This document shows positions 6,835-28,330 of a stretch of DNA of 64,000 bases, one piece after another. The notes below the pieces were generated by a model. That model searched no databases, was not told the origin of the DNA, and was given only the letters and a program-made list of their open reading frames with translations. The DNA comes from Acidimicrobiia bacterium (lineage in GTDB: Bacteria > Actinomycetota > Acidimicrobiia > Spongiisociales > ZC4RG35): NCBI GenBank assembly GCA_035461175.1, contig DATHVR010000151.1, forward strand, positions 5,971-69,970, in the 5' to 3' direction. Position 1 is the first letter of the stretch, and the number at the start of each line of letters is the position of its first letter. The position numbers and the translations under genes are program-made.

Positions 6835-9663
6835 TCACATGTACTCGTCCATGGGAGGGCAGGTGCAGACAAGGTTACGGTCTCCTCCGGCGGCATCGAG
6901 CCGTCCGATGGGAGGCCAGTACTTGTCTTGCTCCAACTCCTCGAGCGGGTAGGCGGCCAGCCGGGCCGGATACGGACGATCCCATTCTCCGATCAGGTCG
7001 GCGGCCGGGTGAGGAGCGTTGTGGAGAGGATTGTCGTCCCGGGGCCACTCCCCCGCTTCGATCCGGTCGATCTCTCCCTTGATGGCGATCATCGCCCGGC
7101 AGAACCGGTCGAGTTCGTACAGCGACTCCGACTCGGTCGGCTCGACCATCAGCGTCCCGGCCACGGGGAAGGCAACCGTGGGGGCGTGGAATCCGTAGTC
7201 GGCCAGCCGTTTGGCCACGTCCTCGGCGGTGACACCGGTGCGGTGGGTGATGGCCCTCAGATCGAGGATGCACTCGTGCGCCACCCGACCCCCGGGACCC
7301 GTGTACAGAACCGGGAAGTGAGGATCGAGCCGGGCGGCGACATAGTTCGCCGCCACGATCGCCCCTTCGGTGGCAGCCTTGAGACCCTCGGCACCCATCA
7401 GCCGGATGTACACCCACGGTATGGGCAGGATTCCCGGTGATCCCCAGGGCGCAGCCGAGATCGGCCCGATTCCGGTCTCGGGCCCGGCCTCGGGCGCCAG
7501 TGGGTGATTGGGCAGGAACGGCGCCAGATGGGACATCGCCCCCACCGGGCCGACTCCCGGGCCGCCACCGCCATGGGGGATCGTGAATGTCTTGTGCAGG
7601 TTGAGATGGCCGATGTCGGCCCCGAAGTCCCCCGGCCGGGCCAGGCCGACGAGGGCGTTCAGGTTGGCTCCGTCGACATAGACCTGGCCGCCCCGAGCGT
7701 GGATGATCTCGCACAACTTGACGATCCCGGGCTCGAACACCCCGTGAGTCGACGGATAGGTGATCATGGCCGCGGCCAGGCGTTTCGAGTGGGCGTCGGC
7801 TTTGGCCTCGAGATCCACCAGATCGACGTTGCCGTGATCGTCGGTGGCCACCACTACCACCGCCATCCCGGCCATCGTCGCCGAGGCGGCGTTGGTGCCG
7901 TGGGCAGATTGGGGGATCAGGCAAACCACCCGCTGGTCATCTCCCCGGCTGCGGTGGTAGGCACGGATGGCGAGGAGACCGGTCAGTTCGCCCTGCGAAC
8001 CGGCGTTGGGCTGGAGGGTGATGGCGTCGTAGCCGGTGAGTTCGGCCAGATACTCCTCCAGCTCGGTGATCATCGCCAGATAACCCTCGGCCTGGTCGAG
8101 AGGCACGAAAGGATGGAGCTCGGTGAACTCGGGCCACGTCATCGGGATCATCTCGGTAGTGGCGTTGAGCTTCATCGTGCACGATCCGAGCGGGATCATC
8201 GAACGATCCAGGGCCAGGTCGCGATCGGCCATGCGGCGCAGGTACCGAAGCATCTCGTGCTCGGTCTGAAAGCGGTGGAACATCGGATGCTCGAGGAAGG
8301 GCGTAGTTCGACGTCGATCGGACGGGATGCCATCTGCGGCCCTTTCGTCGTTCTCTCCGCCCCCGAAGGCAGCCAGCACTCCGGAGACCACGGTCGGCGA
8401 TGACGTCTCGTCGATAGAGATCCCGACGCGCGAGTCGTCGACCCGGCGCAGATTGATTCCCCGTTCCCGCGCCGCCGCAATCACCGTGTCGGCCGAGCAC
8501 CGGACGGTGAGGGTGTCGAAGAATGTCTCGTTCTCGACCTCGACCCCCTCGATCATCTCCAGACCTGCCGCCAGCCGGCCCGTTAGTTCGTTGACGCGGT
8601 GAGCGATGCCAGCGAGACCCTCGGGGCCGTGCCACTGGGCGTAGAGGGCGGCCACCACCGCCAGGAGGACCTGAGCCGTGCAGACATTGGAGGTGGCCCG
8701 TTCCCGTCGGATGTGCTGTTCACGAGTTTGCAGGCTGAGGCGGTATCCGGTGCGACCGGCCGGATCTCTGGCCACGCCCACCAGGCGACCCGGGAGGGCC
8801 CTGACATGACCCTCTCGAACGGCGATGAATCCGGCGTGGGGGCCGCCGAAAGCCATCGGCACGCCGAAGCGCTGGGTCGAGCCCACGGCGATGTCGGCTC
8901 CCAGTGCGCCCACCGGCTCCAGCAACACCGAAGCGAGCAGGTCGGTGGCCGCCACGACGATGCCGCCGGCAGCGTGTACGGCCTCGGCGATATTGGCCAG
9001 ATCCCCCAGCAGGCCACTCGAACCGGGATACTGGACGAGGACTCCGACGACGCCCTCCATCTCGTCGAGATGTTCCGCCACGTCGACCACCTCGACCGGG
9101 ATTCCCATCCCTTCGGCCCGGGTCTCCAACACGGCGACGGTCTGTGGATGGCAGTCCCGGTCGATCAGGAAGCGACCTTCGCGGCGGGTGATGCGAGGCG
9201 CCATGGCCATTGCCTCGGCGGCGGCCGTGCCCTCGTCGAGGAGCGACGAATTGGCGATCTCGAGGCCGGTCAGGTCGGCAACCATGGTCTGGAAATTGAG
9301 CAGGACCTCGAGGCGGCCCTGGGAGATCTCAGCCTGATAGGGGGTGTAGGCGGTGTACCAGGCCGGATTCTCGATGACGTTGCGCAGGATCACGGGCGGG
9401 GTGACGGTGCCGTAGTAACCCATCCCGATCAACGACTTGTGGCGCCGGTTGCGTCCGGCATGGCCCCGCAGGACCGCGAGCACCTCCTCCTCGCCGAGCG
9501 CGGCGGGCAGGTCGAGGGGCCGGCGCTCGAGGATGCGGTCGGGTACCGCCTCGTCGATCAGTTCATCGACGGTCTCGACCCCGAGAACGGGCAACACCTG
9601 TTCGAGGTCGTCGGGCTGGAGCCCGAGGTGGCGGTGGACGAATTGCTGGGCGGTCATGGGCAC
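6835..9663 (-). CDS. gcvP: Glycine dehydrogenase (decarboxylating), glycine cleavage system P protein
   Basis: 942-aa single-chain GcvP with typical N-terminus ([12 protein letters not shown]..., [19 protein letters not shown]) and PLP-dependent regions. Confidence 0.95.
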
Positions 9664-9825
9664 TCCATAACTCCGGAACTCCGGAGACCGGTGACATTGT
9701 CACCGCTGTCGAAGCCTCCAGCGGCGCCTCCGTCGGACGGTCCTGGTGCCTGAGAGTTTCCGCCTTGCGGCGTTGCCCCTTCGGCGTCCCGGCTGATGGG
9801 ACTCTCCCGTCCGAGATCCTCAGCT
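9664..9825 (-). promoter_or_regulatory. Glycine riboswitch in the gcvP leader (one clear aptamer plus a degenerate second)
   Basis: Minus-strand sense reads GGGAGAGUCCC...CGCCGAAGGGGCAACGCCGC...AAACUCUCAGGCACCAGGACCG, which matches the glycine aptamer core, followed by CUGGAGGC...CACCGGUCUCCGGAG. Located immediately upstream of the gcvP ATG. Confidence 0.7.
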
Positions 9826-9901: not shown

Positions 9902-10816
9902 ATGGTCAGCCGTCCTCACACTCGACTTCTCTCGACCAGCCATGGCACCAATCGTGAGGCCTTCTCCGTAACTGACTGGGCCCTGTTCCTGACGCTGGTT
10001 CTGATCTGGGGTGGATCGTTCCTCTTCATGGCCATCGGTCTCGACCACTTCCATCCGGGCCTGGTGACGTTCCTGCGGGTCGGATTCGGTGCCGCCACTC
10101 TCGCCCTGATCCCTCGCGCCCGGCACACCCCGATCGCCCAGGAAGATTGGCCCCGGGTGATCGTGCTGGGCGTCATCTGGATCGCCCTCCCACTCACCTT
10201 CTTTCCCATCGCCCAGCAATGGATCAACTCGGCGGTGGCGGGGATGCTCAACGGCGCCATGCCCATCTTCACCGCACTGGTATCGGTCGCCCTCCTGCGT
10301 GAACTGCCGGGCCGTCGCCAGTCCTTCGGCCTGGTGATCGGATTTGCCGGCATCGCCGCCATCTCGATCCCTTCGGCGGGTGGCGAGAGCACAGCGGTGG
10401 TCGGCGTCGCCCTCGTTTTGGCCGCCACCATCTGTTACGCCTTCGCCACCAACATCGTCGCCCCCCTCCAGCAGAAGTACGGGTCGCTGGCCGTGCTCGC
10501 CCGCGTGCAGTGGGTGGCGGTGCTGTTGGTGGTTCCGTATGGAGCGGTGGGACTGGGCCCGTCGGAGTTCGCCTGGTCCTCGTTGTTGGCGGCACTGGCC
10601 GTTGGGGTGCTGGGAACCGGCCTCGCCTTCGTGTTGATGGGCACTCTGGCCGGGCGGGTGGGCGCAACCCGAGCCTCCTTCATCACCTACGTCATCCCGG
10701 TGGTGGCCCTGGTGCTCGGGGTGGTCTTCCGCAGCGACCAGGTGTCACCGATCGCAGTCGTCGGAGTCTTGTTGGTGATCGTCGGAGCCTTTCTCGCCTC
10801 CCGGCGCGAGCTCTAG
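9902..10816 (+). CDS. EamA/DMT-family membrane transporter
   Basis: About 10 predicted TM helices in two EamA-like halves. The true start is probably a GTG/ATG downstream of 9902. Confidence 0.65.
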   Translation: MVSRPHTRLLSTSHGTNREAFSVTDWALFLTLVLIWGGSFLFMAIGLDHFHPGLVTFLRVGFGAATLALIPRARHTPIAQEDWPRVIVLGVIWIALPLTFFPIAQQWINSAVAGMLNGAMPIFTALVSVALLRELPGRRQSFGLVIGFAGIAAISIPSAGGESTAVVGVALVLAATICYAFATNIVAPLQQKYGSLAVLARVQWVAVLLVVPYGAVGLGPSEFAWSSLLAALAVGVLGTGLAFVLMGTLAGRVGATRASFITYVIPVVALVLGVVFRSDQVSPIAVVGVLLVIVGAFLASRREL

Positions 10817-18055: not shown

Positions 18056-18988
18056 CTAGCTGTGACAACCGGGGACGTTGTCCTTGGCGGCGGCCCGACG
18101 CAGGGCCCGAAACATCAGGTGCTGGTCGCCGAGCCGCCGGCGAAGCTCGCGTTCCAGGCCGCCGATCGGGTAGAGGTTCTCGGGCGCCCGGGGATCCTTG
18201 TGGGGGCGGGAGGCGAAACGGGGCAGGGTGGCCGTGACCTGGTCGGCCAGGCGGACCGCGGCGGCGATGTCGACGTCGGCCGCCACCTCGCAGCGCACCA
18301 GGCCCTCGGCGGGGCCCTGGCCGCGGGCCAGCCGCACGTACCACGAGTAGCGCGACCAGGCCCCGGTGGTCAGGAAGAGCGGCGTGCGCCGTCCCACCGC
18401 CAGCCCGTACTTGACGTCCCACAGCTCGGGCGGGAGGTACTCGACGTGCTCACGCTTGATGTATCCCACCGCTCGCTCGACGTGGCGGCGGTGGCTGAGG
18501 GGGCCGTCCACGACCACCAGCGCCACCCCATCCTGGGAAGCGGCTACGACGCCTTCCAGCTCGCCCATCCGTTGCTGGATCCCGAGCCACAACTCCTCCG
18601 GTGTCTGGCCATAGGTAGCCCGGACCTCGTAGCTTCCGCACCGGGTCTCCACGGCCTCGACACCGTGGGCGGCGGTGAAGAGTCCCCGTTCTACCGCCGT
18701 TTCGACCACGGTGGCGTGGCCGTTGGCCCGGACGGCACCGGCGGCGTAAGTGGCGGCCAGACCCAGCCCGGGACGACCCTCGCTCTGTTCGATCCACAGG
18801 TTGGCGTCGACCCGGCGAACCCCGTCGACGAACAGCACATCGTCGAGAGCCGCCGAATCCGGCGCCATGCCGCGCCACTCCCCCGCCGGAACCTCGACAC
18901 CCACGTCGACCCGGGAGCTGGCGTCCTCGAGGTCGGGGTCGACCGGCATCCCGTATTCGGGCGACCACTGGGCCACGGTGAATCTCAT
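18056..18988 (-). CDS. Hypothetical protein directly downstream of sbcDC; possible NurA-like nuclease
   Basis: Taking the MRFTVAQWSPEY start, the protein has two DG-containing beta-strand motifs (LFVDGV at ~55 and ALVVVDGPL at ~161) with acidic residues between them. This spacing is reminiscent of NurA, but it has not been verified. The plus-strand ORF across the same region is Gly/Arg/His-rich junk. Confidence 0.45.
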   Translation of the reverse strand: MRFTVAQWSPEYGMPVDPDLEDASSRVDVGVEVPAGEWRGMAPDSAALDDVLFVDGVRRVDANLWIEQSEGRPGLGLAATYAAGAVRANGHATVVETAVERGLFTAAHGVEAVETRCGSYEVRATYGQTPEELWLGIQQRMGELEGVVAASQDGVALVVVDGPLSHRRHVERAVGYIKREHVEYLPPELWDVKYGLAVGRRTPLFLTTGAWSRYSWYVRLARGQGPAEGLVRCEVAADVDIAAAVRLADQVTATLPRFASRPHKDPRAPENLYPIGGLERELRRRLGDQHLMFRALRRAAAKDNVPGCHS

Positions 18989-19021
18989 ACCGCCCCACCC
19001 ACCCACCGGAATCTCATATCC

Positions 19022-19074
19022 GAGGTCGGAGGTCGGAGGTCAGAATCAGCCAGTCGGAAGTCGGAAGTCGGAAG
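19022..19074. repeat. Two short tandem heptamer arrays, (GAGGTCG)x3 and (GTCGGAA)x3, in the sbcC/nurA-like intergenic region
   Basis: Seen directly in the DNA. On the minus-strand mRNA they read as CCUCCGA and CUUCCGA repeats, i.e. anti-Shine-Dalgarno-like. Confidence 0.6.
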
Positions 19075-19144
19075 CCAGACTGGCGTGCAGATAGCGACCG
19101 AGACGGGTTGATGCTGCACGTCGGTTTCCGAAAACAGGCTGTCA

Positions 19145-21511
19145 TCAGGTTTCGATTCTCTCGATCGTGCTGCCCCCGGGGCCGGGTCGGATCTCGAAGC
19201 GGACCGGCACCTGTTCCCCCAGGTCCTTGACGTGGGTGACCAGGCCCACCACCCGGCCGCTTGCCGCCAGCTCGGTGACGACGGCCGTGACGGTCTCGAG
19301 CGTCTCGGCGTCGAGGCTGCCGAATCCCTCGTCGAGGAAGATCGCCTCCAGACGGCTGCCGCCCAGTCGCGACATGTTGGACAGCTGCTCGCCGAGGGAG
19401 AGGGCCAGGGCCAACGAGACCAGGAAGGTCTCTCCGCCTGAAAGGCTGCGCACGGAGCGCCGTTCGTCGGCATTGCGGTGGTCGATGACTTCGATGCTGC
19501 GGTCGTGCAGCGCCAACGAGTAGGCACCCCGAGTCAGGTCGTCGAGCAGCGAGTTGGCCCCCTCGACCAGGGTGGCCAGGGCTTCGGCCAGAAACCAGCC
19601 GACGAAGTTGCCGGCCCGAAGATGATTGGCGAGAGCCGAGGCCACCGCCCCGCTCCGGGAGAACCTGGCCAGATCTGCCTCCAGCGTCTCCCGCTGGGAG
19701 CGCCGTTCGCGCACCCGATCGAGATCGGCGGCGGCGGTGGCACAGGCGGCGGCCAGCCGGGACGAGGCGGCTCCGGACCCGCCCACTCCGAGTTCTTCCA
19801 GCTTCGCCGCCAGCCGTGCCCGTTGCTCCTCGAGGTCGGCCTGGGCCAGCTTGGCCTGTTCCTCGCAGGATTCCACCCTGGCGTCGAGCAGCTGGGCCTG
19901 TTCCCGGGCCCATTCCGCCAGTTCGGACCAGGCGTCGTCGAGGGCATCCCGTCCCGCCGCCGGAGGCCCGAGGGCGGCCACGCCATCTCGCGCCGCCGAG
20001 TAATCATCCCACGCCTGACGCTCGCGAGTTTCCAGGGTGGTCAGGCCGGCCCGGGCGTCGACCACCCTTCGCCGGGCCTCCTTCAGAGCATTCTCCAGGA
20101 CGGCGGCTTCCGCATCGAGCCGGCTCCGTTCATCCAGCAGGCCCTTGAGCTCGGGCTCGCCGGGGGCATCGCCCAGACGCCGTCCCAGGTCATCGATCGT
20201 TTCGACACAGGCGGCGTGGGTGGCGCCCGCCTCAGCCCGGGCGTGTTCGGCTCGGCGCAGAACCGACTCTGCTTCGGCGACGGAACCCTCGGCCGAGCCG
20301 ACGGCCGCCTTCAACTCGTCCAGGTCGACCGGCGAATCGTCCGGCTCCTCCTCGAGAGGACGGTGGCACACCGGGCAGGGATCGCCGGCGTGGAGGCCGA
20401 CGGCGAGAGCATGGGCGGCGTGGCGGGTGCGCGCCTCCTCCCAGGCAGCAGCCGCCCCGTCTCGACCCGACCGTGCCTGAGCGACGGTCTCGGTGGCCGA
20501 TGCCACCTCCTGATCGAGACCGGCGAGGTCGATGGCCTCCCGCTTCTTCTCGGACTCACTCAGTTGCTGTCGCATCTGGAGCATCGCTTCGAGTTCCGGA
20601 CGTGACGGCGTCCCGGCGGCGGCTTCGACGGCCTTCTCGACGGCCTCCATCGCCTGGCCCTCGTCGGCCTGGGCCTGGCTGAGTCGCTCGCGGGCAACCT
20701 TGAGATCCTCCGCCAGCCGCCCGACCGAATCGGGAACCCGGACCTGGGCCACCTGTTTCTGTTGTTCCTGAACCGCCTTCAGCTCCTCGATCCGTTGCCG
20801 GACTTCGTTCTGAGCCGCCTGGATCTGCTCCTCGGCGTGGCCGACCGGCCCCACCTGGGCCTCGAGTGTGGCCAGACGCCGGGCGGTCTGGTCCTCGGCC
20901 TCGGCGGTGGCGTCGGCAAGGTGGTCGAGTTGAGTCCGGGCCGACTCCCCCAGCGCCTGGGCGGTGCGCTGCCGCTCCACCGCCAGGCGGCGCACCTCGT
21001 CGAGAACTCCCATGTCGAGCAGGGCCTTGACCAGCGCCTGCTGGCCGGCCGGGGTGTCGTGGAGGAAGGCGGCGAACTCGCCCTGGGGCAAGACGACCGA
21101 GCGATTGAAGTGGTCGAGCCCGAGCCCGAGAAGTTGCTCGACGTGGCGGCCTACCTCGTCGGCTCCGGAAGCGAGCACCGCTCCCCCACTCTCGAGACGG
21201 GCCTCGGCCACGGTGGCACCGCCCCGGGGATTCCGGCGCACCACCCGGGCGGCGGTGTAGGGAACCCCTTCGACGGTGAACTCGAACAGGACCCGGGCCT
21301 CGGCGGCCCCGAGGGAGATGACGGGCTCCACCGCCCGGCCTCCGTAACGGGCCACCCTTCCATACAGGGCAAACGTGATGGCATCGATCACCGAACTCTT
21401 GCCGCTGCCGGTGGGGCCGGTGAGGGCGAAGAGGTCGAGCCCACCGAAGTCGATCTCGGTGGCCGACCGGAAAGGTGCGAACCCGGCCATCTCGAGGCGT
21501 TCAGGCTTCAT
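19145..21511 (-). CDS. sbcC: SbcC/Rad50-family double-strand-break-repair ATPase
   Basis: N-terminal Walker A (LTGPTGSGKSS), a long coiled coil, a central CxxC zinc hook (DPCPVCHRPLEEE), and C-terminal signature and D-loop motifs (SLSGGETFLVSLALALS...IFLDEGFGSLD). Confidence 0.9.
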   Translation of the reverse strand: MKPERLEMAGFAPFRSATEIDFGGLDLFALTGPTGSGKSSVIDAITFALYGRVARYGGRAVEPVISLGAAEARVLFEFTVEGVPYTAARVVRRNPRGGATVAEARLESGGAVLASGADEVGRHVEQLLGLGLDHFNRSVVLPQGEFAAFLHDTPAGQQALVKALLDMGVLDEVRRLAVERQRTAQALGESARTQLDHLADATAEAEDQTARRLATLEAQVGPVGHAEEQIQAAQNEVRQRIEELKAVQEQQKQVAQVRVPDSVGRLAEDLKVARERLSQAQADEGQAMEAVEKAVEAAAGTPSRPELEAMLQMRQQLSESEKKREAIDLAGLDQEVASATETVAQARSGRDGAAAAWEEARTRHAAHALAVGLHAGDPCPVCHRPLEEEPDDSPVDLDELKAAVGSAEGSVAEAESVLRRAEHARAEAGATHAACVETIDDLGRRLGDAPGEPELKGLLDERSRLDAEAAVLENALKEARRRVVDARAGLTTLETRERQAWDDYSAARDGVAALGPPAAGRDALDDAWSELAEWAREQAQLLDARVESCEEQAKLAQADLEEQRARLAAKLEELGVGGSGAASSRLAAACATAAADLDRVRERRSQRETLEADLARFSRSGAVASALANHLRAGNFVGWFLAEALATLVEGANSLLDDLTRGAYSLALHDRSIEVIDHRNADERRSVRSLSGGETFLVSLALALSLGEQLSNMSRLGGSRLEAIFLDEGFGSLDAETLETVTAVVTELAASGRVVGLVTHVKDLGEQVPVRFEIRPGPGGSTIERIET

Positions 21512-22637
21512 GGGCCTCCTCGACCAGGTCCTCGAACAGCTTCACGACCGCCTCGTCGAAGGCGTCTACCTCGTTGAGGTATTCGGTGAGCAGCTCGGAA
21601 TGGGAGCGCCCGCTCCGATCGGGCCGCTCCCCGGCCTGGTCCTTCCGGCGCCGGGGGTCAATCACCACCTCGACTGCCTGTGGGAGCATCTCCCGGACCG
21701 TGTCGGCGATGCCCACCCGCACCGGCTCGTCGAGGACCACCCGGACGTAGTCGGATTCGGGAATCTCGGCGGCGGCCGCCTCGACCTGGGCCAGGGTCCC
21801 CGACACGGTCCGCAGCCTCCTTCCCCGGCTCAGCGGGCGGAAATCGACCTTGGAGGGTTGCCCGGGCTCGGCCTCGACCAACAGGACACCCTTGCGATCG
21901 TCCTCTTCACCGAAGTCGAGCTGGATCGGCGAACCCGAGTACCACACCGGGGCACCCGCCGGCAGCTTCTGATGGCGGTGCAGGTGCCCGAGGGCGACGT
22001 AGGACAGGCTGGTGGGGAACGCCTGGGAGGGAATCGAGTAGTCGAACACCGTATGAGCCGCCCGCTCCCCACCGCCCACCTCGCCGCCGTGGACCATGAC
22101 GTGGCCCACCACCACGTTGACGTCGTCGGCGGACAGGTCCTGGCACAGAGCCTCGATGATGGCCGACATGCGGTCGACGTACTTGCCGCCCTGGCGGTCG
22201 GCATCGAGGTCCATCAGATCGGCCGCCGAAACGATGGCGCGCTGGGAGACGAACGGAATCATCGCCACCCGGGCCGGTTCCACCGGCCGCACCACGCCGC
22301 CCCGGTCGGGAGCCGCCACCGTGCTGACACTTGTCACCCGCCCCAGTTCGAGTAGAGGAGCCACCGCCTCCAGACGCCGGGGATGGTCGTGGTTGCCCGC
22401 CACCATCACCACCGGTGCCACCTGGGCCAGTTGCATCAGGGTGCGATACACCAGTCGCTCCGCCTCGGGGGGCGGGCTGGAGATGTCGAACTGGTCGCCG
22501 GCCACCAGCACCAGATCCACCGCTTCGTCGGCGGCGATCCCGGCCATCTCGTCGAGGACCTCGGTTTGCTCCTCGACACGGCTGCGCCCGCGGATGGTAC
22601 GGCCGACATGCCAGTCGGCGGTGTGGAGAATCTTCAC
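21501..22637 (-). CDS. sbcD: SbcD/Mre11-family nuclease (calcineurin-like phosphoesterase)
   Basis: MKILHTADWHVG, LVAGDQFD, GNHDH and GHLH phosphoesterase motifs. Overlaps sbcC by 11 nt. Confidence 0.9.
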   Translation of the reverse strand: MKILHTADWHVGRTIRGRSRVEEQTEVLDEMAGIAADEAVDLVLVAGDQFDISSPPPEAERLVYRTLMQLAQVAPVVMVAGNHDHPRRLEAVAPLLELGRVTSVSTVAAPDRGGVVRPVEPARVAMIPFVSQRAIVSAADLMDLDADRQGGKYVDRMSAIIEALCQDLSADDVNVVVGHVMVHGGEVGGGERAAHTVFDYSIPSQAFPTSLSYVALGHLHRHQKLPAGAPVWYSGSPIQLDFGEEDDRKGVLLVEAEPGQPSKVDFRPLSRGRRLRTVSGTLAQVEAAAAEIPESDYVRVVLDEPVRVGIADTVREMLPQAVEVVIDPRRRKDQAGERPDRSGRSHSELLTEYLNEVDAFDEAVVKLFEDLVEEAHEA

Positions 22638-22690
22638 TGCTCCGAGACTAGGTCGGGGGTGTGACAGTTCCCGGCGTTTGCCGCCCCCGC

Positions 22691-22750
22691 AACCGTTCTG
22701 TGGGCCGGAAAGCGCGCCAGAACCGTCATTTTCCGACCCACAGAACGGAT
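22691..22750. promoter_or_regulatory. Long imperfect inverted repeat (16-nt arms, 24-nt spacer) in the divergent sbcD/serpin promoter region
   Basis: CCGTTCTGTGGGCCGG...(24 nt)...CCGACCCACAGAACGG. The arms are reverse complements with one mismatch. Confidence 0.4.
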
Positions 22751-22795
22751 CCGTGCCCCTTTGGCGGGAACCCGCCCGCCCACCGCCGACGTCAG

Positions 22796-24076
22796 ATGGG
22801 CATGAAGCGTGTGCCCTCCGTCTTCGCCGCCCTCGCCCTGGTAGCTACCGCTTGCGGCACCGGGACGACCCCTACCTTCGACTCCGAACCCATCACCGAA
22901 CCCACCGAGACCGCTCCCCCGGGGCCGCCCCGGACCCTCGCTGTCTCGGTGTCGCGGACCGATCCCGATCCGGCGGCGCCGGTCGCCCAGCTCGTCACCG
23001 GGTTCAACGACGCCGGCTTTGAGTTGCTGGGGCGCCAGGGGACCGAGAACTTCGTCTTCAGCCCCCTCAGCATCGGCCACGCCCTCCTCATGGCGCGAGG
23101 AGCTGCCGACGACCCCACCGGCCGGGCGATCGATGCCAGGTTCGATCTTCCCGAAGACCGGGCTGCCCACCAGGCCTGGAACGCCCTCGATCAGCAACTG
23201 GGTCAGGCGACCGCCGATCAGGACGAGATGGAGGTCACGATCGCCGACCGGATCTGGCCCCGGATCGGTCTGGAGCCGGAACAGGACTGGATCGACCTGC
23301 TGGCGGCCGAGCACGGCGCCTCGGTGGAGACTCTGGACCTGTCCGGTGACCCCACCGGGAGCCGGAAGCACATCAACGAATGGGTCTCCCAACAGACTCA
23401 GGGCCTCATCCCCGACCTCCTGCCAGACGGATTCATCACGCCCCAGACCCTGTTGGTGCTGACCGACGCCGTCTACTTCGAGGCCCGCTGGCAGACGCCG
23501 TTCGGCAAGTACGGCACCGTGAGTGAAGATTTCACGCTCCTGGACGGGAGCACGATCCAGGTCGAATACATGCGGGAACTGGAACTGCTGGACCGCCGCG
23601 GCGTCGGGGACGGCTTCGTCGCCGCGGAGATCCCCTATGTGGGCGGGGAGTTCTCGATGCTGCTGATCGTGCCCGACCGGGACCGGTTCACCGAGATCCG
23701 CGATTCCCTCGACCAGGGGCTGGTAGACACCATCGACCGCACCTTCGAGGAGGGGCCATTCGAACTCCTGGTTCCGAAATGGGAGACAACCACCAACCTC
23801 GATCTGCTCCCGTGGCTCGAAGAGGCGGGCGTAGCCCCCGGAAGCTATCCCGGCATCGACCCGAGCGCCTTCCTGGCCGGAGCCGTCCATGGCGCCGACA
23901 TCGCGGTGGATGAGGAGGGGACCGTGGCGGCGGCCGCCACCGGACTCGGCTTCAACGAATCGGCCGGGGCTATGCCGGAACTGACCATCGCCGCCGACCG
24001 GCCCTTCCTCTACCTGATCCGCCACCGTCCCAGCGGAGCGGTCTTGTTCGCCGGCCAGGTGACCGACCCGCGCTAG
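22796..24076 (+). CDS. Serpin (serine protease inhibitor) family lipoprotein
   Basis: Lipoprotein signal MGMKRVPSVFAALALVATAC, then serpin motifs NFVFSPLSIGHALLMA, the hinge/RCL region (EEGTVAAAATG...) and C-terminal ADRPFLYLIRHRPSGAVLFAGQV. Confidence 0.85.
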   Translation: MGMKRVPSVFAALALVATACGTGTTPTFDSEPITEPTETAPPGPPRTLAVSVSRTDPDPAAPVAQLVTGFNDAGFELLGRQGTENFVFSPLSIGHALLMARGAADDPTGRAIDARFDLPEDRAAHQAWNALDQQLGQATADQDEMEVTIADRIWPRIGLEPEQDWIDLLAAEHGASVETLDLSGDPTGSRKHINEWVSQQTQGLIPDLLPDGFITPQTLLVLTDAVYFEARWQTPFGKYGTVSEDFTLLDGSTIQVEYMRELELLDRRGVGDGFVAAEIPYVGGEFSMLLIVPDRDRFTEIRDSLDQGLVDTIDRTFEEGPFELLVPKWETTTNLDLLPWLEEAGVAPGSYPGIDPSAFLAGAVHGADIAVDEEGTVAAAATGLGFNESAGAMPELTIAADRPFLYLIRHRPSGAVLFAGQVTDPR

Positions 24077-24411
24077 CTCTCTCCCGCCCGGTAGACCCTG
24101 ACCTCCACCCTCTCCAACGTCACCAGGCCGTCGCCGATCATCCCCTCCAGGGCGGGGAGGACTGCCTCGATCTTCTCAGAGGCGTCCACACACTCGATCA
24201 CGATCGGCAGGTCCTCCGATAGGCGCAGGATGTGAGCGGCATGGAGGCGACTCGACTTGCCGAAGCCCTCGATCCCGCGCAGGACGGTCGCTCCCGCCAG
24301 ACCCTCCTTGCGCATCAACTCGACTATCGCCTGATACAGCGGCCGTCCGTCGTAGGTATCGGACTCGCCGATGAATATCCGCAGCAACCGGGCCTGGCTG
24401 GTGTTCTCCAT
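24073..24411 (-). CDS. DUF190 (PII-like) protein, fluoride-module associated
   Basis: 112 aa with the conserved ...FIGESDTYDGRPLYQAIVELMRKEGLAGATVLRGIEGFGK core. Directly downstream of two crcB genes. Confidence 0.7.
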   Translation of the reverse strand: MENTSQARLLRIFIGESDTYDGRPLYQAIVELMRKEGLAGATVLRGIEGFGKSSRLHAAHILRLSEDLPIVIECVDASEKIEAVLPALEGMIGDGLVTLERVEVRVYRAGES

Positions 24412-24419
24412 GTGCTCTC

Positions 24420-24773
24420 CTATCCGTTCGTGAGGCTATACCCGAGGGCGGCAAGGGCGACGCCACCGACGAGGCCACCCAGCAGGTTGATGAAGGCGAG
24501 CGGGCGCAAGCGCACCATTCCGATGCGCAGCGTCTCGACCATCCAGGTCGAGTAGGTGGTGAATCCGCCCAGGAAGCCGCCGAGGCCGATCACCCACGGA
24601 GACGTAGCACCACCGGCTCCGGCCACCAGTCCAAGCATGAATGCTCCACTCAGATTGACGAGGATGGTCCCGGCCGGAAACCCGGCCCCGGCCCGCTCCT
24701 GGACGAAACCCGAGAGGATATATCGCGCCACGGCCCCCACTCCTCCGGCCAGCGACAGGATGACCAGGCTCAC
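24420..24773 (-). CDS. crcB: Fluoride exporter CrcB/Fluc, second paralog
   Basis: 4-TM CrcB fold with GTILVNLSGAFMLG and GFLGGFTTYSTW motifs. GTG start overlaps the upstream crcB stop (GTGA). Confidence 0.75.
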   Translation of the reverse strand: MSLVILSLAGGVGAVARYILSGFVQERAGAGFPAGTILVNLSGAFMLGLVAGAGGATSPWVIGLGGFLGGFTTYSTWMVETLRIGMVRLRPLAFINLLGGLVGGVALAALGYSLTNG

Positions 24774-25189
24774 GTGGCCCCTCCGCCCAGCCGCAACCCG
24801 AGTTGTGCCGACGCCAGGCCACCGACGAGCGAGGCCAGGAGGTAGGCGAGCGCCGGACCGACACGGGCGGCTTCGACCAGCATGATGAGGTCGACGCTGA
24901 ATGCCGAGAAGGTGGTGAAGGACCCCAGGAGCCCGATCCCCCAGAACTGGACCGACCATCGCCGGTCGGGAGCCGTCCGCTCTCGCCGGGACACGAGATA
25001 GCCGAGGAGGAAGGAACCGATCAGATTGACGGCCAGGACCGATGCGGGAAACCCATCGGCCGGATGCGATATCAGCTCTCCGATTCCGACCCGGGCGGCC
25101 GAACCGAGAACCCCGCCGCCGAGCACGGCGACAAGCGACCGAAGCGGCTCTCGACTGCGTTGCGATCGGGGATGGGGATGGCTCGACAC
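24770..25189 (-). CDS. crcB: Fluoride exporter CrcB/Fluc, first paralog
   Basis: Motifs LAVNLIGSFLLG and GLLGSFTTFSAFS. Start assigned to the GTG at 25187-25189, which has a GGAAGGA Shine-Dalgarno 6 nt upstream. The longer ATG-start version would overlap the riboswitch. Confidence 0.7.
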   Translation of the reverse strand: MSSHPHPRSQRSREPLRSLVAVLGGGVLGSAARVGIGELISHPADGFPASVLAVNLIGSFLLGYLVSRRERTAPDRRWSVQFWGIGLLGSFTTFSAFSVDLIMLVEAARVGPALAYLLASLVGGLASAQLGLRLGGGAT

Positions 25190-25199
25190 GGTTCCTTCC

Positions 25200-25275
25200 G
25201 TCTGTCCAGGAGCCATCAGCCCTTGTCGGGCGCTTCACGGCGAGCCCCATCGCCGGGGATCATCCTAGTTCTACG
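25200..25275 (-). promoter_or_regulatory. Fluoride riboswitch (crcB motif)
   Basis: Minus-strand sense reads GGAUGAUCCCCGGCGAUGGGGCUCGCCGUGAAGCGCCCGACAAGGGCUGAUGGCUCCUGG. This matches the conserved GGCGAUGGNGUUCGCC...AAC(C)GCC...GCUAAUGACUCCUAC architecture, directly 5' of crcB. Confidence 0.7.
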
Positions 25276-25281
25276 AGCGGG

Positions 25282-26961
25282 TCACAATCCCTCGAAGGGG
25301 TCGTCGGGGACGTCGCCCCGGCCCGCCCCGGCAGCCACCTCGGATGGGCGGGTGGCCCAGGCCGGGAAGGGGAACTCGGCCACGACCGGCACGGGTAGTT
25401 CCGGCTGGCTGACCAGCATCGTTCCCGGCTTGATGATGGTGGCCCGCTGACGATGGACCTGGGGCAGAAACCCGTACTCCTCCCGGCTGGCCTCGGCCGA
25501 GTCGAGTCGGCCCACCACCCGGATCGAGGAGTTGGCGATGATGCGGCGCTCAACCTCGGAGGCGGTCTGCTGGGCGCCGATCAGGATCACACCCAGGCTG
25601 CGACCGCGTTCGGCCACATCGAGCAGGATCTCCTTGATCGGGCTCGACCCGTCCCGGGGGGCGTACTTGTTCAACTCGTCGAGCACCACGAACAGGAGAT
25701 CGTCGTCACCCTGGCGACCCTGCCGTTCCTTCTGCTCGAAGGCACGCCGCACCGTGACCCCGACGACGAATCGCTTGGCCCGGTCGTTGAGATTGTGGAG
25801 GTCGACCACCGTGACCTGGTTGTTCTCGAGGGCCACCCGGTGTCGCTCCGGGTCGGGGAGATTGCCCCGGATCAACCGCTCGACGTGACGTACCGCCGAG
25901 TTGAGCCGGCGGACGAAGGCGTTGATGGTCCCCCGCCCGATGGCAGTCCCGGCCCAGACCGGGCCGTCGTCCTCGCTCAGGACCTTCTCGGTGATCAACT
26001 CGACCAGGGCGCGGAAAGTGCGGACCGTGGTCCCGTCGATCACCACCGATCCGTCGTCGGTGGCCTGGGCCCGCTTCAACTGGGCCATGACCGAATACAC
26101 CACCATGGTGTACTGGGCCCGGTCGTCCTCGGCGTCGGCGAACAGGAACGGAAGCAGGTCGTCGTGGCAGAACTCGCCCAGGGACCAGCAGAACGAGGTC
26201 ACGTCGGACCGGGAGTGGACGTCGGCCCGCAGGGTGGCCGAGTCGGGGCGGGGCGGGGCGTAGAGGCCGACCGAGCGGAAGGGCTCGGCCGGCAGCCCCA
26301 GCGACCCGTAGCGGGCGACCTGGTCGGCGTCGAGGAGACCGTTGGGGCGGTCGAGATGGAGCAGATCCTCGCCCTTGACGTTGAAGATCAGAGCCTTGGT
26401 GTTTATCGCTCCCGCCCCCAACACCCCGCCGGTGAACAGGGAATGGAGCAGAAAGGTGGCGTAGGTGGTCTTCGTGGCCACCCCGGACACACCCGAGATG
26501 TTGACGTGGGCGCCCCGCTCCCCGTTGACGAACTCGAAGTTGACGAACAGCGGCTCGTCGTCGCGGGTCATCCCGATCACCAAGCGGCGCTCCATCCGGT
26601 CGAAGAAGAGCGCCTTGTCGCGCTCCTCCCCCTCGGCGCGGGCCACCGGCTGGCCGGGCCGGGGCGGGACGAACACCTCGGGTTCGAAGCGGGTGGCGGT
26701 GATGCGGGCGGATTCGGCCACCTCGGCAGGAAGGACGCCATCGGAGATGAGGAAGACGTCCGAGTCGAAGCGTGCTCCCTCGTGGCGGGCCCGGACCTGA
26801 GACACCATCCCGTAGACCCGCACCGCCTCGCCCGTGGGGAGCACCCTTTCCAGGGCGACGACGTCGTCGAGCTGGAGGTACTGACCCTCCGCCACCGCCA
26901 CCCAGAAGTCGAGCGGGGTGGCGTCTTCGGTTCCGATCACCCGGCCGACCATCTCTGCCAT
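25282..26961 (-). CDS. HerA-like ATPase (HAS-barrel plus DUF87/FtsK-HerA P-loop NTPase) with atypical Walker A
   Basis: From MAEMVGRVIGTEDATPLDFWVAVAEGQYLQLDDVV (HAS-barrel) onward. Walker A-like NISGVSGVATKTT (deviant), Walker B LLFVVLDELNKY, and arginine finger and C-terminal regions typical of HerA. The upstream 105 codons of the ORF are judged non-coding. Confidence 0.65.
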   Translation of the reverse strand: MAEMVGRVIGTEDATPLDFWVAVAEGQYLQLDDVVALERVLPTGEAVRVYGMVSQVRARHEGARFDSDVFLISDGVLPAEVAESARITATRFEPEVFVPPRPGQPVARAEGEERDKALFFDRMERRLVIGMTRDDEPLFVNFEFVNGERGAHVNISGVSGVATKTTYATFLLHSLFTGGVLGAGAINTKALIFNVKGEDLLHLDRPNGLLDADQVARYGSLGLPAEPFRSVGLYAPPRPDSATLRADVHSRSDVTSFCWSLGEFCHDDLLPFLFADAEDDRAQYTMVVYSVMAQLKRAQATDDGSVVIDGTTVRTFRALVELITEKVLSEDDGPVWAGTAIGRGTINAFVRRLNSAVRHVERLIRGNLPDPERHRVALENNQVTVVDLHNLNDRAKRFVVGVTVRRAFEQKERQGRQGDDDLLFVVLDELNKYAPRDGSSPIKEILLDVAERGRSLGVILIGAQQTASEVERRIIANSSIRVVGRLDSAEASREEYGFLPQVHRQRATIIKPGTMLVSQPELPVPVVAEFPFPAWATRPSEVAAGAGRGDVPDDPFEGL

Positions 26962-27142
26962 CGGCGGCGAGGGTAGTGGGCGGCTGTGACATCGACCGAA
27001 GCGATCGATCCACCGCCGGGCGTTCTGTGATGGTGGGCGGCTGGCCCGGATTCCCTCCCGGCACCTCCTGCCCGGAATCCCTGGTCGCGCCGGAGGCACG
27101 ACCCATTGCCCGAAGCCCCGGTTCGGAGTCCGCTCGGGTACG

Positions 27143-28330
27143 GTGACCCGGTTGAGCTTCGTCGCATTTCCGTTCAAGTCCGAGGACCCGGCCGTCGCCG
27201 TCGCCAATCTCGAGGTAGCGGCGCGCCATCCGCGTGTCCGACGGGTGCTGGCGGTGGGCTCGGGTGCGGACGCCACCTACCGAAGCCTGGCCGAGTTCGC
27301 CCCCGCTCTCGAGCGTCGCACCGGCACCCCGGTCGAGGTGATCGTCCAGGAGCGGATCGGGGACCGCCGCCCCGGCAAGGGCGACGGCATGAACACTGCC
27401 CTGCGGCGTTTCCGCGACTCCGACCACCAGCGCATCCACTTCTACGACGCCGACATCACCAACTTCGACGCCACCTGGATCGACGGGGCCGAGGCGGCGG
27501 CCGACCGCCACTTCCCCGTCGTTCGTCACTATTTCCCCCGCGCCTCCACCGACGCCATGATCACCTGGTTGGTGACCCGGCCGATCTTCGCCCTGGCTCA
27601 CCCCGATTCGATCCTGTGGGAGATCCGCCAGCCGTTGGGTGGCGAGCTGCTCCTCACCCGGGACATCGCCGTCGCCCTGGCGGATGACCCCCGGGTGGTG
27701 GAACGCTCCGACTGGGGGATCGACACCGTCCTCACGTATGCCACCGTCGCCCTCGGCGAACCGGTCTACGAGCACTACGTGGCCGAGGGCAAACAACACG
27801 CCCTCTACCGCTCCCTGGGCGATATCCGCCAGATGCTCGTCGAGTGCTTCGAGGCGGCGGCCGCAGTCGCCGCCCTCCCCTCCCCCGGCCGGCCCCGCCA
27901 CGAGGTGGCGCCTCCGGCCACGGCCGGGCCCGCCATCGCCCACAAGGTGGGATTCGACATCGAGAGCACCATCCACCTGCTGATCGCCCCGTGGCCGCCG
28001 GAGGCGGTCTCGGCGGCGGCCGAACTTCCTGCCGACCTCTCCCGGCCCCTGCTCGCCAACCTGGTCCGACCCACCTTTTCGTTCATGGACGGCGCCCGCT
28101 GGCGGAGGACGCTTCAGGTGCTGCTGGCGCGCTACGAGTCGACACCGGGCTGGGAAGAAGTGCTGTTCCGGCTGTGGGTCGCCCGGGTGCTCGCCTACGC
28201 CACCGGCGAGGCTCTATATGGCCATGCAGCAGCGATGGCAGTGCTGGAGGAACAGGTGCGCCGCTGTGCCCGTCCCAGGACAGACCGATCAGGGAATGGA
28301 CAACAGGGCGACGGCCAGCACTCCCAGTGA
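27143..28330 (+). CDS. GT-A-fold glycosyltransferase, glucosyl-/mannosyl-3-phosphoglycerate-synthase-like
   Basis: RPGKGDGMNTAL and FYDADITNF resemble the GpgS/MpgS GT81 motifs RPGKGEA and DxD. GTG start. Confidence 0.45.
   Translation: MTRLSFVAFPFKSEDPAVAVANLEVAARHPRVRRVLAVGSGADATYRSLAEFAPALERRTGTPVEVIVQERIGDRRPGKGDGMNTALRRFRDSDHQRIHFYDADITNFDATWIDGAEAAADRHFPVVRHYFPRASTDAMITWLVTRPIFALAHPDSILWEIRQPLGGELLLTRDIAVALADDPRVVERSDWGIDTVLTYATVALGEPVYEHYVAEGKQHALYRSLGDIRQMLVECFEAAAAVAALPSPGRPRHEVAPPATAGPAIAHKVGFDIESTIHLLIAPWPPEAVSAAAELPADLSRPLLANLVRPTFSFMDGARWRRTLQVLLARYESTPGWEEVLFRLWVARVLAYATGEALYGHAAAMAVLEEQVRRCARPRTDRSGNGQQGDGQHSQ

Follow-up and report, generated by a model that had tools for sequence, protein, structure and literature searches.

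The window analysed here is a stretch of 64,000 nucleotides (nt) from an Acidimicrobiia bacterium (GenBank assembly GCA_035461175.1, contig DATHVR010000151.1, positions 5,971 to 69,970). Its minus strand carries a gene, nurA, whose product is almost certainly a bacterial-type NurA nuclease, together with the genes of the Mre11- and Rad50-like proteins SbcD and SbcC and of the translocase HerA. The original prediction, which was made by eye from the sequence, had described the gene as an unassigned third member of an sbcCD operon and had offered NurA or another metal-dependent nuclease as a guess. The four genes that are central to our analysis are as follows (coordinates of the window).

18056..18988, minus strand: nurA, almost certainly encoding a 310-aa bacterial-type NurA nuclease of the RNase H-like/PIWI fold (sequence and profile matches in the PDB, AlphaFold2 model, Foldseek).
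19145..21511, minus strand: sbcC, encoding a 788-aa Rad50-like ATPase (Pfam AAA_23 and SbcC_Walker_B; NCBIfam TIGR00618, E 1.2e-72).
21501..22637, minus strand: sbcD, encoding a 378-aa Mre11-like phosphoesterase (TIGR00619 with 177 bits at a cutoff of 77.65, E 5e-52; Pfam Metallophos).
25285..26961, minus strand: herA, encoding a 559-aa bacterial-type HerA hexameric translocase (Walker A GVSGVATKT at 157, Walker B VLDELNKY at 426).

The open reading frame (ORF) of nurA was tested by its codon-position GC content. The values of 0.77, 0.50 and 0.87 at the first, second and third position of 18056-18988 are those expected of coding sequence on the minus strand of a window with 68% GC. A competing antisense ORF at 18062-19111 was rejected, as its codon-position GC (0.84/0.51/0.76) is mirrored and non-coding. 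The product has 4084 scored homologs at E <= 1e-3, corresponding searches of representatives returned 1236 clusters (50% identity) at the same threshold, and an identical protein has been deposited as “hypothetical protein” of an Acidimicrobiia metagenome-assembled genome (MAG). The clear coding signal and the meaningless opposite strand that had been recognized by eye are hence confirmed by codon-position GC and by homologs. The predicted length of 316 aa has to be corrected. It results from a mechanically called ORF that begins with GTG at 19006, a start that was rejected because the N-termini of 78 diverse homologs align at M1-R2...W8. This alignment identifies the ATG at 18988 as the real start codon and reduces the protein to 310 aa.

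A phmmer search of the PDB with the nurA product alone retrieved the NurA chain 7f6d_H of Deinococcus radiodurans (drNurA; E 4.8e-19) and TM1739 of Thermotoga maritima (TmNurA; 1zup, E 2.4e-09). A profile of 78 family members matched the same two chains with E values of 3.9e-51 and 8e-21, respectively, and covered nearly the whole protein. The identity of the gene product was established by these PDB searches and by the fold, because an NCBIfam search gave no match for it and the score of the Pfam NurA model (PF09376) remained below threshold. On their own, 44 of the 78 family members match PF09376 (best E 4.1e-12), and some homologs with about 64% identity already bear the NCBI name “DNA double-strand break repair nuclease NurA”. 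The AlphaFold2 model, which was built on the family alignment, is confident throughout, with a predicted local distance difference test (pLDDT) value of 94.2 and a predicted template modelling (pTM) score of 0.91. In a Foldseek comparison with the PDB, drNurA and TmNurA rank first (E 6e-18 to 8e-16, template modelling [TM] scores of 0.67-0.72), and the PIWI domains of Argonautes, RNase H domains and a chain of the HerA/NurA-like TdpAB system follow further down the list. The model and this ranking are both in accordance with an RNase H-like/PIWI fold around a central mixed beta-sheet. The earlier statement that no family could be assigned merely reflects the limit of reading by eye; the profile search leads to NurA and not to a characterized non-nuclease family. 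The accompanying guess was right, as documented by sequence, fold and the active-site evidence described below.

The two DG motifs on which this guess was based, FVDGV and VVVDGPL, begin at residues 53 and 158 (D55-G56 and D161-G162), and the AlphaFold model places each of them on a beta-strand (E51-66 and E157-162, respectively). Their Asp residues are 106 positions apart, in agreement with the predicted distance of about 105 aa, and the acidic region noticed between them corresponds to helix 130-150 with the invariant E145. D55, E145, D161, W8, K178 and R267 are all invariant in the 78-sequence alignment, and every residue that is invariant across this alignment is present in the NurA of the window. 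D55, E145 and D161 align with Asp49, Glu140 and Asp157 of TmNurA, conserved active-site residues that correspond to Asp51, Glu105 and Asp126 of PfNurA, the Mn2+ site (PMC3300031). By homology, the three residues represent the predicted Asp-Glu-Asp triad for binding of Mn2+. D55 also aligns with D53 of drNurA, and the D53A variant served as nuclease-dead control (PMC9960219). The same study mutated three further drNurA residues of functional importance, W8, K201 and R309, of which W8 lies beside the pin-like motif that splits the strands. Their counterparts in the window protein are W8, K178 and R267 (the chain numbering of 7f6d is shifted by a 20-residue tag relative to drNurA). According to our reading of the profile alignment against PMC9960219, the HerA-contact residues K299, K303, H305 and K306 of drNurA motif 3 align with R257, R261, H263 and K264, and R336 and R339 of motif 4 have their counterparts in R294 and R297, whereas the third residue of this motif, R337, is replaced by A295. 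The N-terminal Trp and most residues of the basic HerA-contact motifs are thus retained.

Judged by homology, HerA is the expected partner of NurA, and an intact herA gene is located 6.3 kb upstream of nurA. Its product matches the D. radiodurans HerA (DrHerA; PDB 7f6d_B) with a phmmer E value of 2.7e-152. The ortholog from the related locus L002 aligns with DrHerA nearly over the full length (E 2.6e-143) in two segments separated by a short gap; both the Walker A motif, which has the unusual form GxSGVATKT, and the Walker B motif LDELNKY are part of this alignment. HerA was missed in the original prediction and in the precomputed annotations, where its orthologs in related contigs carry a “-”, because a weak HAS-barrel match (E 0.023) is all that Pfam provides for the window protein. 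The HerA/DUF87-type models of Pfam appear to miss this entire clade of bacterial HerA proteins. A gene of about 550-570 aa without Pfam match is always present upstream of sbcD in the related contigs, and its counterpart in the window is herA.

The conservation of the gene cluster was investigated in relatives. A scan with an 18-sequence alignment, restricted to one genome per species, revealed at least 581 relatives among the 600 matches listed, and according to the taxon labels of the record titles the best 80 loci belong nearly all to Acidimicrobiia or other Actinomycetota MAGs. A total of 84 related loci were compared by tblastn with the four window proteins; a small number of these loci are redundant, as L001 and L006 stem from one contig and L003 and L004 hardly differ from L002. 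Most of the loci exhibit the order herA-sbcD-sbcC-nurA, and the junctions are organized as follows.

SbcC directly upstream of NurA: all 83 measurable loci (83/83).
Overlap of sbcC stop and nurA start: 67 of 82 measurable loci, with a 4-nt overlap (ATGA) in 63.
Overlap of sbcD and sbcC: 65 of 70 measurable loci.
Gap between herA and sbcD: median of 63 nt in 66 measurable loci; at most 100 nt in 46, more than 100 nt in 20, and up to 6 kb.

Co-occurrence of nurA with sbcCD in other genomes, which had been proposed as a check, is thus documented by the position of SbcC in every testable locus, and the possibility that the gene lacks this neighbour in all relatives does not apply. Where the sequence extends far enough upstream, HerA is nearly always encoded within 10 kb. 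The genetic unit consists of the four genes herA-sbcD-sbcC-nurA instead of the postulated three-gene sbcCD operon, because herA is located directly upstream of sbcD in most relatives. The designation of nurA as a dedicated third component of sbcCD is accurate with respect to its tie to sbcDC, but it overlooked the canonical partner HerA. The four-gene order is maintained in family members with 36-37% identity, and one relative with 37% identity (L088, 263-4449) shows the order nurA-herA-sbcD-sbcC.

Within this comparison the window is atypical at both junctions, as it harbors a spacer of 156 nt in front of nurA and a cassette plus a serpin gene between herA and sbcD. The two intervening features are the following.

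18989..19144, minus strand: atypical sbcC-nurA spacer of 156 nt (analysed with Tandem Repeats Finder and for direct repeats).
24073-25263, minus strand: fluoride-resistance cassette inserted between herA and sbcD, at a site where herA is directly next to sbcD in related loci.

The Rad50-like product of sbcC has Walker A and Walker B motifs (GPTGSGKS at residue 32 and FLDEGFG at residue 725), a zinc hook with the sequence CPVC at residue 379 and an LSGGE motif at residue 690. The gene ends with a stop codon at 19145-19147, and the distance to the nurA ATG at 18988 amounts to the 156 nt of the spacer. The proposed translational coupling of the two genes hence fails for the window, whereas it is supported for the relatives by the frequent stop/start overlap. 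Upstream, sbcD overlaps the start of sbcC by 11 nt. The genes sbcD, sbcC and nurA alone are contiguous in the window and alone able to share a transcript, and nurA is probably expressed from this sbcD-sbcC-nurA transcription unit. A consensus scan of the spacer detected neither a sigma-70-like promoter nor an intrinsic terminator, and Rfam gave no match in the spacer at E <= 1. Between sbcD and herA, the window contains the serpin gene on the opposite strand, a DUF190 gene, crcB genes and a fluoride riboswitch (25200-25263). A contiguous four-gene operon on one strand is accordingly absent from the window, but it is present in relatives.

The spacer is rich in repeats. A 7-nt repeat, which reads GTCGGAA / GAGGTCG on the plus strand, occurs in about seven copies at 19025-19074, and a 29-nt tandem duplication (18980-19018) spans the ATG of nurA together with the G-rich stretch that immediately precedes it. 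Two copies of ATGAGATTC are accordingly found in the window, at 19017 and 18988, with a distance of 29 nt. In the close relatives L001/L006, the spacer measures 217 nt and the genes are intact; the L001 spacer contains 3.9 copies of the 29-nt unit with a match of 97% (9915-10027). Inspection by eye showed that each of its extra units encodes a mini-ORF of ten codons, MRFRWMGGAV, that the TGA of this mini-ORF overlaps with the ATG that follows, and that the one extra unit of the window reads MRFRWVGGAV. The 7-nt repeat was not visible by eye in the spacer of L001.

The neighbours of the three contiguous genes are the divergent serpin gene on one side and a convergent gene for an extracytoplasmic function (ECF) sigma factor, followed by an unassigned 175-aa ORF, on the other side. 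The serpin gene at 22661-24076 on the plus strand matches Pfam Serpin with an E value of 1.6e-67; it diverges from sbcD and occupies part of the gap between herA and sbcD. Its product has a probable lipoprotein-type signal peptide by eye (MKRVPSVFAALALVATACG), and serpins are uncommon in bacteria. The fluoride cassette is self-contained and comprises the riboswitch (48 bits), a crcB gene within the ORF at 24770-25216 and the DUF190 gene (24073-24411, minus strand). A second crcB, recognized by eye only, probably occupies the 3' portion of the ORF at 24420-25250. On the other side of herA, a mannosylglycerate synthase gene is located in divergent orientation (26990-28330, plus strand; MGS_GT, E 8.6e-99); it also adjoins herA in L002, which suggests a partly conserved synteny. 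A glycine riboswitch (9728-9819, minus strand; 66 bits) lies directly upstream of gcvP (6835-9699, minus strand), which is the expected arrangement. In the related locus L086, the NurA gene adjoins a 23S_rRNA_IVP/bAvd-like gene, and a PIN and BrnA toxin-antitoxin pair is found further along the contig.

The closest known counterpart is the D. radiodurans system. Its NurA (DR_0836; 7F6D) has the same fold and belongs to the same family (TM 0.71, profile E 3.9e-51), the experimentally tested residues are shared, the basic HerA contacts of motif 3 are kept, and the partner HerA of the window is a close ortholog (E 2.7e-152). The two NurA proteins differ by an identity of about 27% and by their length (349 aa in D. 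radiodurans compared with 310 aa), as several insertions of drNurA are absent here, and the genetic setting differs in that nurA follows sbcC and herA precedes sbcD. TM1739 (1ZUP), a NurA homolog from structural genomics, is comparably distant, with TM scores of 0.68-0.72, an identity of about 26-28% and an aligned active site. The same four functions are combined in the archaeal herA-mre11-rad50-nurA operon of Sulfolobus and Pyrococcus, the form in which this break-repair cluster is best known and the physical gene order of which is taken to be the order of listing. The run of genes in most relatives of the window equals the listing order in PMC4351679, i.e., translocase, Mre11-type nuclease, Rad50-type ATPase and NurA, and co-transcription of the four genes has been reported for archaea (PMC2288612). 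In contrast to the archaeal operon, all four proteins described here are bacterial-type; the archaeal Mre11 and Rad50 models match SbcD and SbcC far less well than the bacterial TIGR models do, and the sequence and profile searches of the PDB retrieved no archaeal HerA or NurA chain past the thresholds. Two further differences are the conserved N-terminal Trp8/pin region, as archaeal NurA is devoid of the pin element (PMC9960219), and the interruption of the window operon between herA and sbcD.

A bacterial linkage of NurA/HerA with sbcDC has been published for Oceanithermus profundus, where the order is nurA-hepA(herA)-sbcD-sbcC (PMC5448004), the same as in L088. There, nurA is the first gene and abuts herA, whereas it is the last gene in the window and in most loci of Actinomycetota and overlaps sbcC in most loci. 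NurA-HerA of bacteria has been described as limited to a few bacteria, e.g., Deinococcus-Thermus (PMC9960219). The 1236 clusters and the at least 581 relatives among the 600 matches listed argue against such a limit. Our literature search did not find a description of an actinobacterial herA-sbcD-sbcC-nurA operon, which is absence of evidence only. The NurA protein itself belongs to a known family, and the operon is widespread but under-described, with Oceanithermus as the one published bacterial precedent.

By analogy with the characterized systems, NurA most likely acts together with HerA and SbcCD in the resection of DNA ends. Work on Deinococcus and archaea (PMC9960219, PMC3300031, PMC3326311) suggests a mechanism in which a NurA dimer would cap the HerA hexamer and would be fed with duplex DNA by the pumping of HerA. 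The strands would be split by the N-terminal Trp8/pin region, and the Mn2+-dependent RNase H-like sites would then degrade mainly the 5' strand and leave a 3' tail for RecA. SbcCD presumably recognizes and opens blocked or hairpin ends beforehand and hands them off to HerA-NurA, in the manner of archaeal Mre11-Rad50. Several observations weigh against this interpretation. At the level of the protein, the Pfam NurA model scores 18.6 bits (E 0.0014) and does not reach its gathering threshold of 21; in view of the PDB sequence and profile matches, this value is best read as a sensitivity limit of the models and not as evidence against homology. In addition, known NurA proteins contain a fourth, C-terminal metal-binding residue (His411 in PfNurA, an Asp in TmNurA), for which the invariant N271 and E279 of the RAPxNLxPIxxLE motif are the candidates in the window protein. 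At the level of the locus, the herA gene of the window cannot be co-transcribed with nurA because of the fluoride riboswitch/crcB cassette and the opposite-strand serpin gene between herA and sbcD. Four related loci have no HerA within 10 kb, and a relative with 38% identity (L086, 1921-2955) contains a solitary NurA of 344 aa. Finally, even for D. radiodurans the biological role of NurA-HerA has not been settled, as its deletion raised the tolerance to mitomycin C and far-UV (PMC9960219).

The genomic data raise the question of how closely NurA is associated with each of its partners. A version of the archaeal resection machine that is made up of bacterial-type parts only, in which HerA, SbcD, SbcC and NurA work as one assembly and SbcCD is directly coupled to NurA, is conceivable for many Actinomycetota, and we propose it tentatively, as somewhat less probable than not. 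The near-universal ATGA overlap between sbcC and nurA could then be explained by co-assembly of the proteins in fixed stoichiometry or by direct transfer from SbcCD to NurA. In that case, these bacteria would provide the functional connection of SbcCD with NurA-HerA that is missing so far for bacteria. An alternative in line with the original prediction regards NurA chiefly as an accessory nuclease of SbcCD, which would bind to or act directly with SbcC/SbcD and largely without HerA. The junction between nurA and sbcC is indeed far tighter than the one between herA and sbcD, as seen from the 4-nt overlap in 63/82 loci and the upstream position of SbcC in 83/83, compared with herA-sbcD gaps of more than 100 nt in 20/66 loci, distances of up to 6 kb and the four loci without nearby HerA; in the window, moreover, a single transcript is possible for sbcD-sbcC-nurA only. 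We nevertheless consider a role apart from HerA unlikely, since HerA is nearly always encoded nearby where the sequence extends far enough, the Trp8/pin region and most of the basic residues in contact with HerA, which couple NurA to the translocation by HerA, are conserved (PMC9960219), and a direct contact between SbcC and NurA is not known from any system. Moreover, nurA abuts herA in other members of the family with the order nurA-herA-sbcD-sbcC (L088; PMC5448004).

Two alternatives concern the nature of the locus as a whole. HerA-type ATPases that are paired with nucleases function in defence, e.g., in SIR2-HerA and TdpAB, but an anti-phage or foreign-DNA defence module of this type is very improbable here. 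Chain 8wfd_G of TdpAB ranks fourth among the fold matches of NurA (E 1.4e-4), but with a TM score of 0.41 and 12% identity this match is weak in comparison with the values of about 0.7 for genuine NurAs. The PADLOC matches of SbcC (LmuB, mad3) and HerA (HerA, mad8) are likewise weak and of a generic ATPase type, NurA has no PADLOC match at all, and far better matches of SbcC, SbcD and HerA were obtained with housekeeping models (E 1e-72, 5e-52 and 2.7e-152, respectively). The flanking genes are partly conserved in related Acidimicrobiia (mannosylglycerate synthase, ECF sigma factor, EamA, and gcvP within 10 kb), which is more compatible with a gene of the chromosomal core than with a mobile island. 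That NurA is an inactive relic or a decaying ORF might be suspected from the outlier position of the window, with its tandem repeats and duplicated start region in the 156-nt spacer, and from the sub-threshold Pfam score. We regard this as the least credible explanation, because the ORF is full length without frameshift or internal stop and has a GC3 of 0.87, all family-invariant residues are kept, the AlphaFold2 model is confident throughout, and the close relatives L001/L006 have retained intact genes behind an even longer spacer of 217 nt.

The analysis assigns a confident function to two genes, nurA and herA, that had been deposited or scored as hypothetical. It adds to the knowledge of a known family its breadth, a tight four-gene operon in Actinomycetota, and a HerA clade that is unseen by the Pfam models. 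Cooperation of SbcCD with NurA-HerA has been posed as a question for Deinococcus (PMC4663267), and the linkage with sbcDC provides a testable handle on this cooperation in bacteria.

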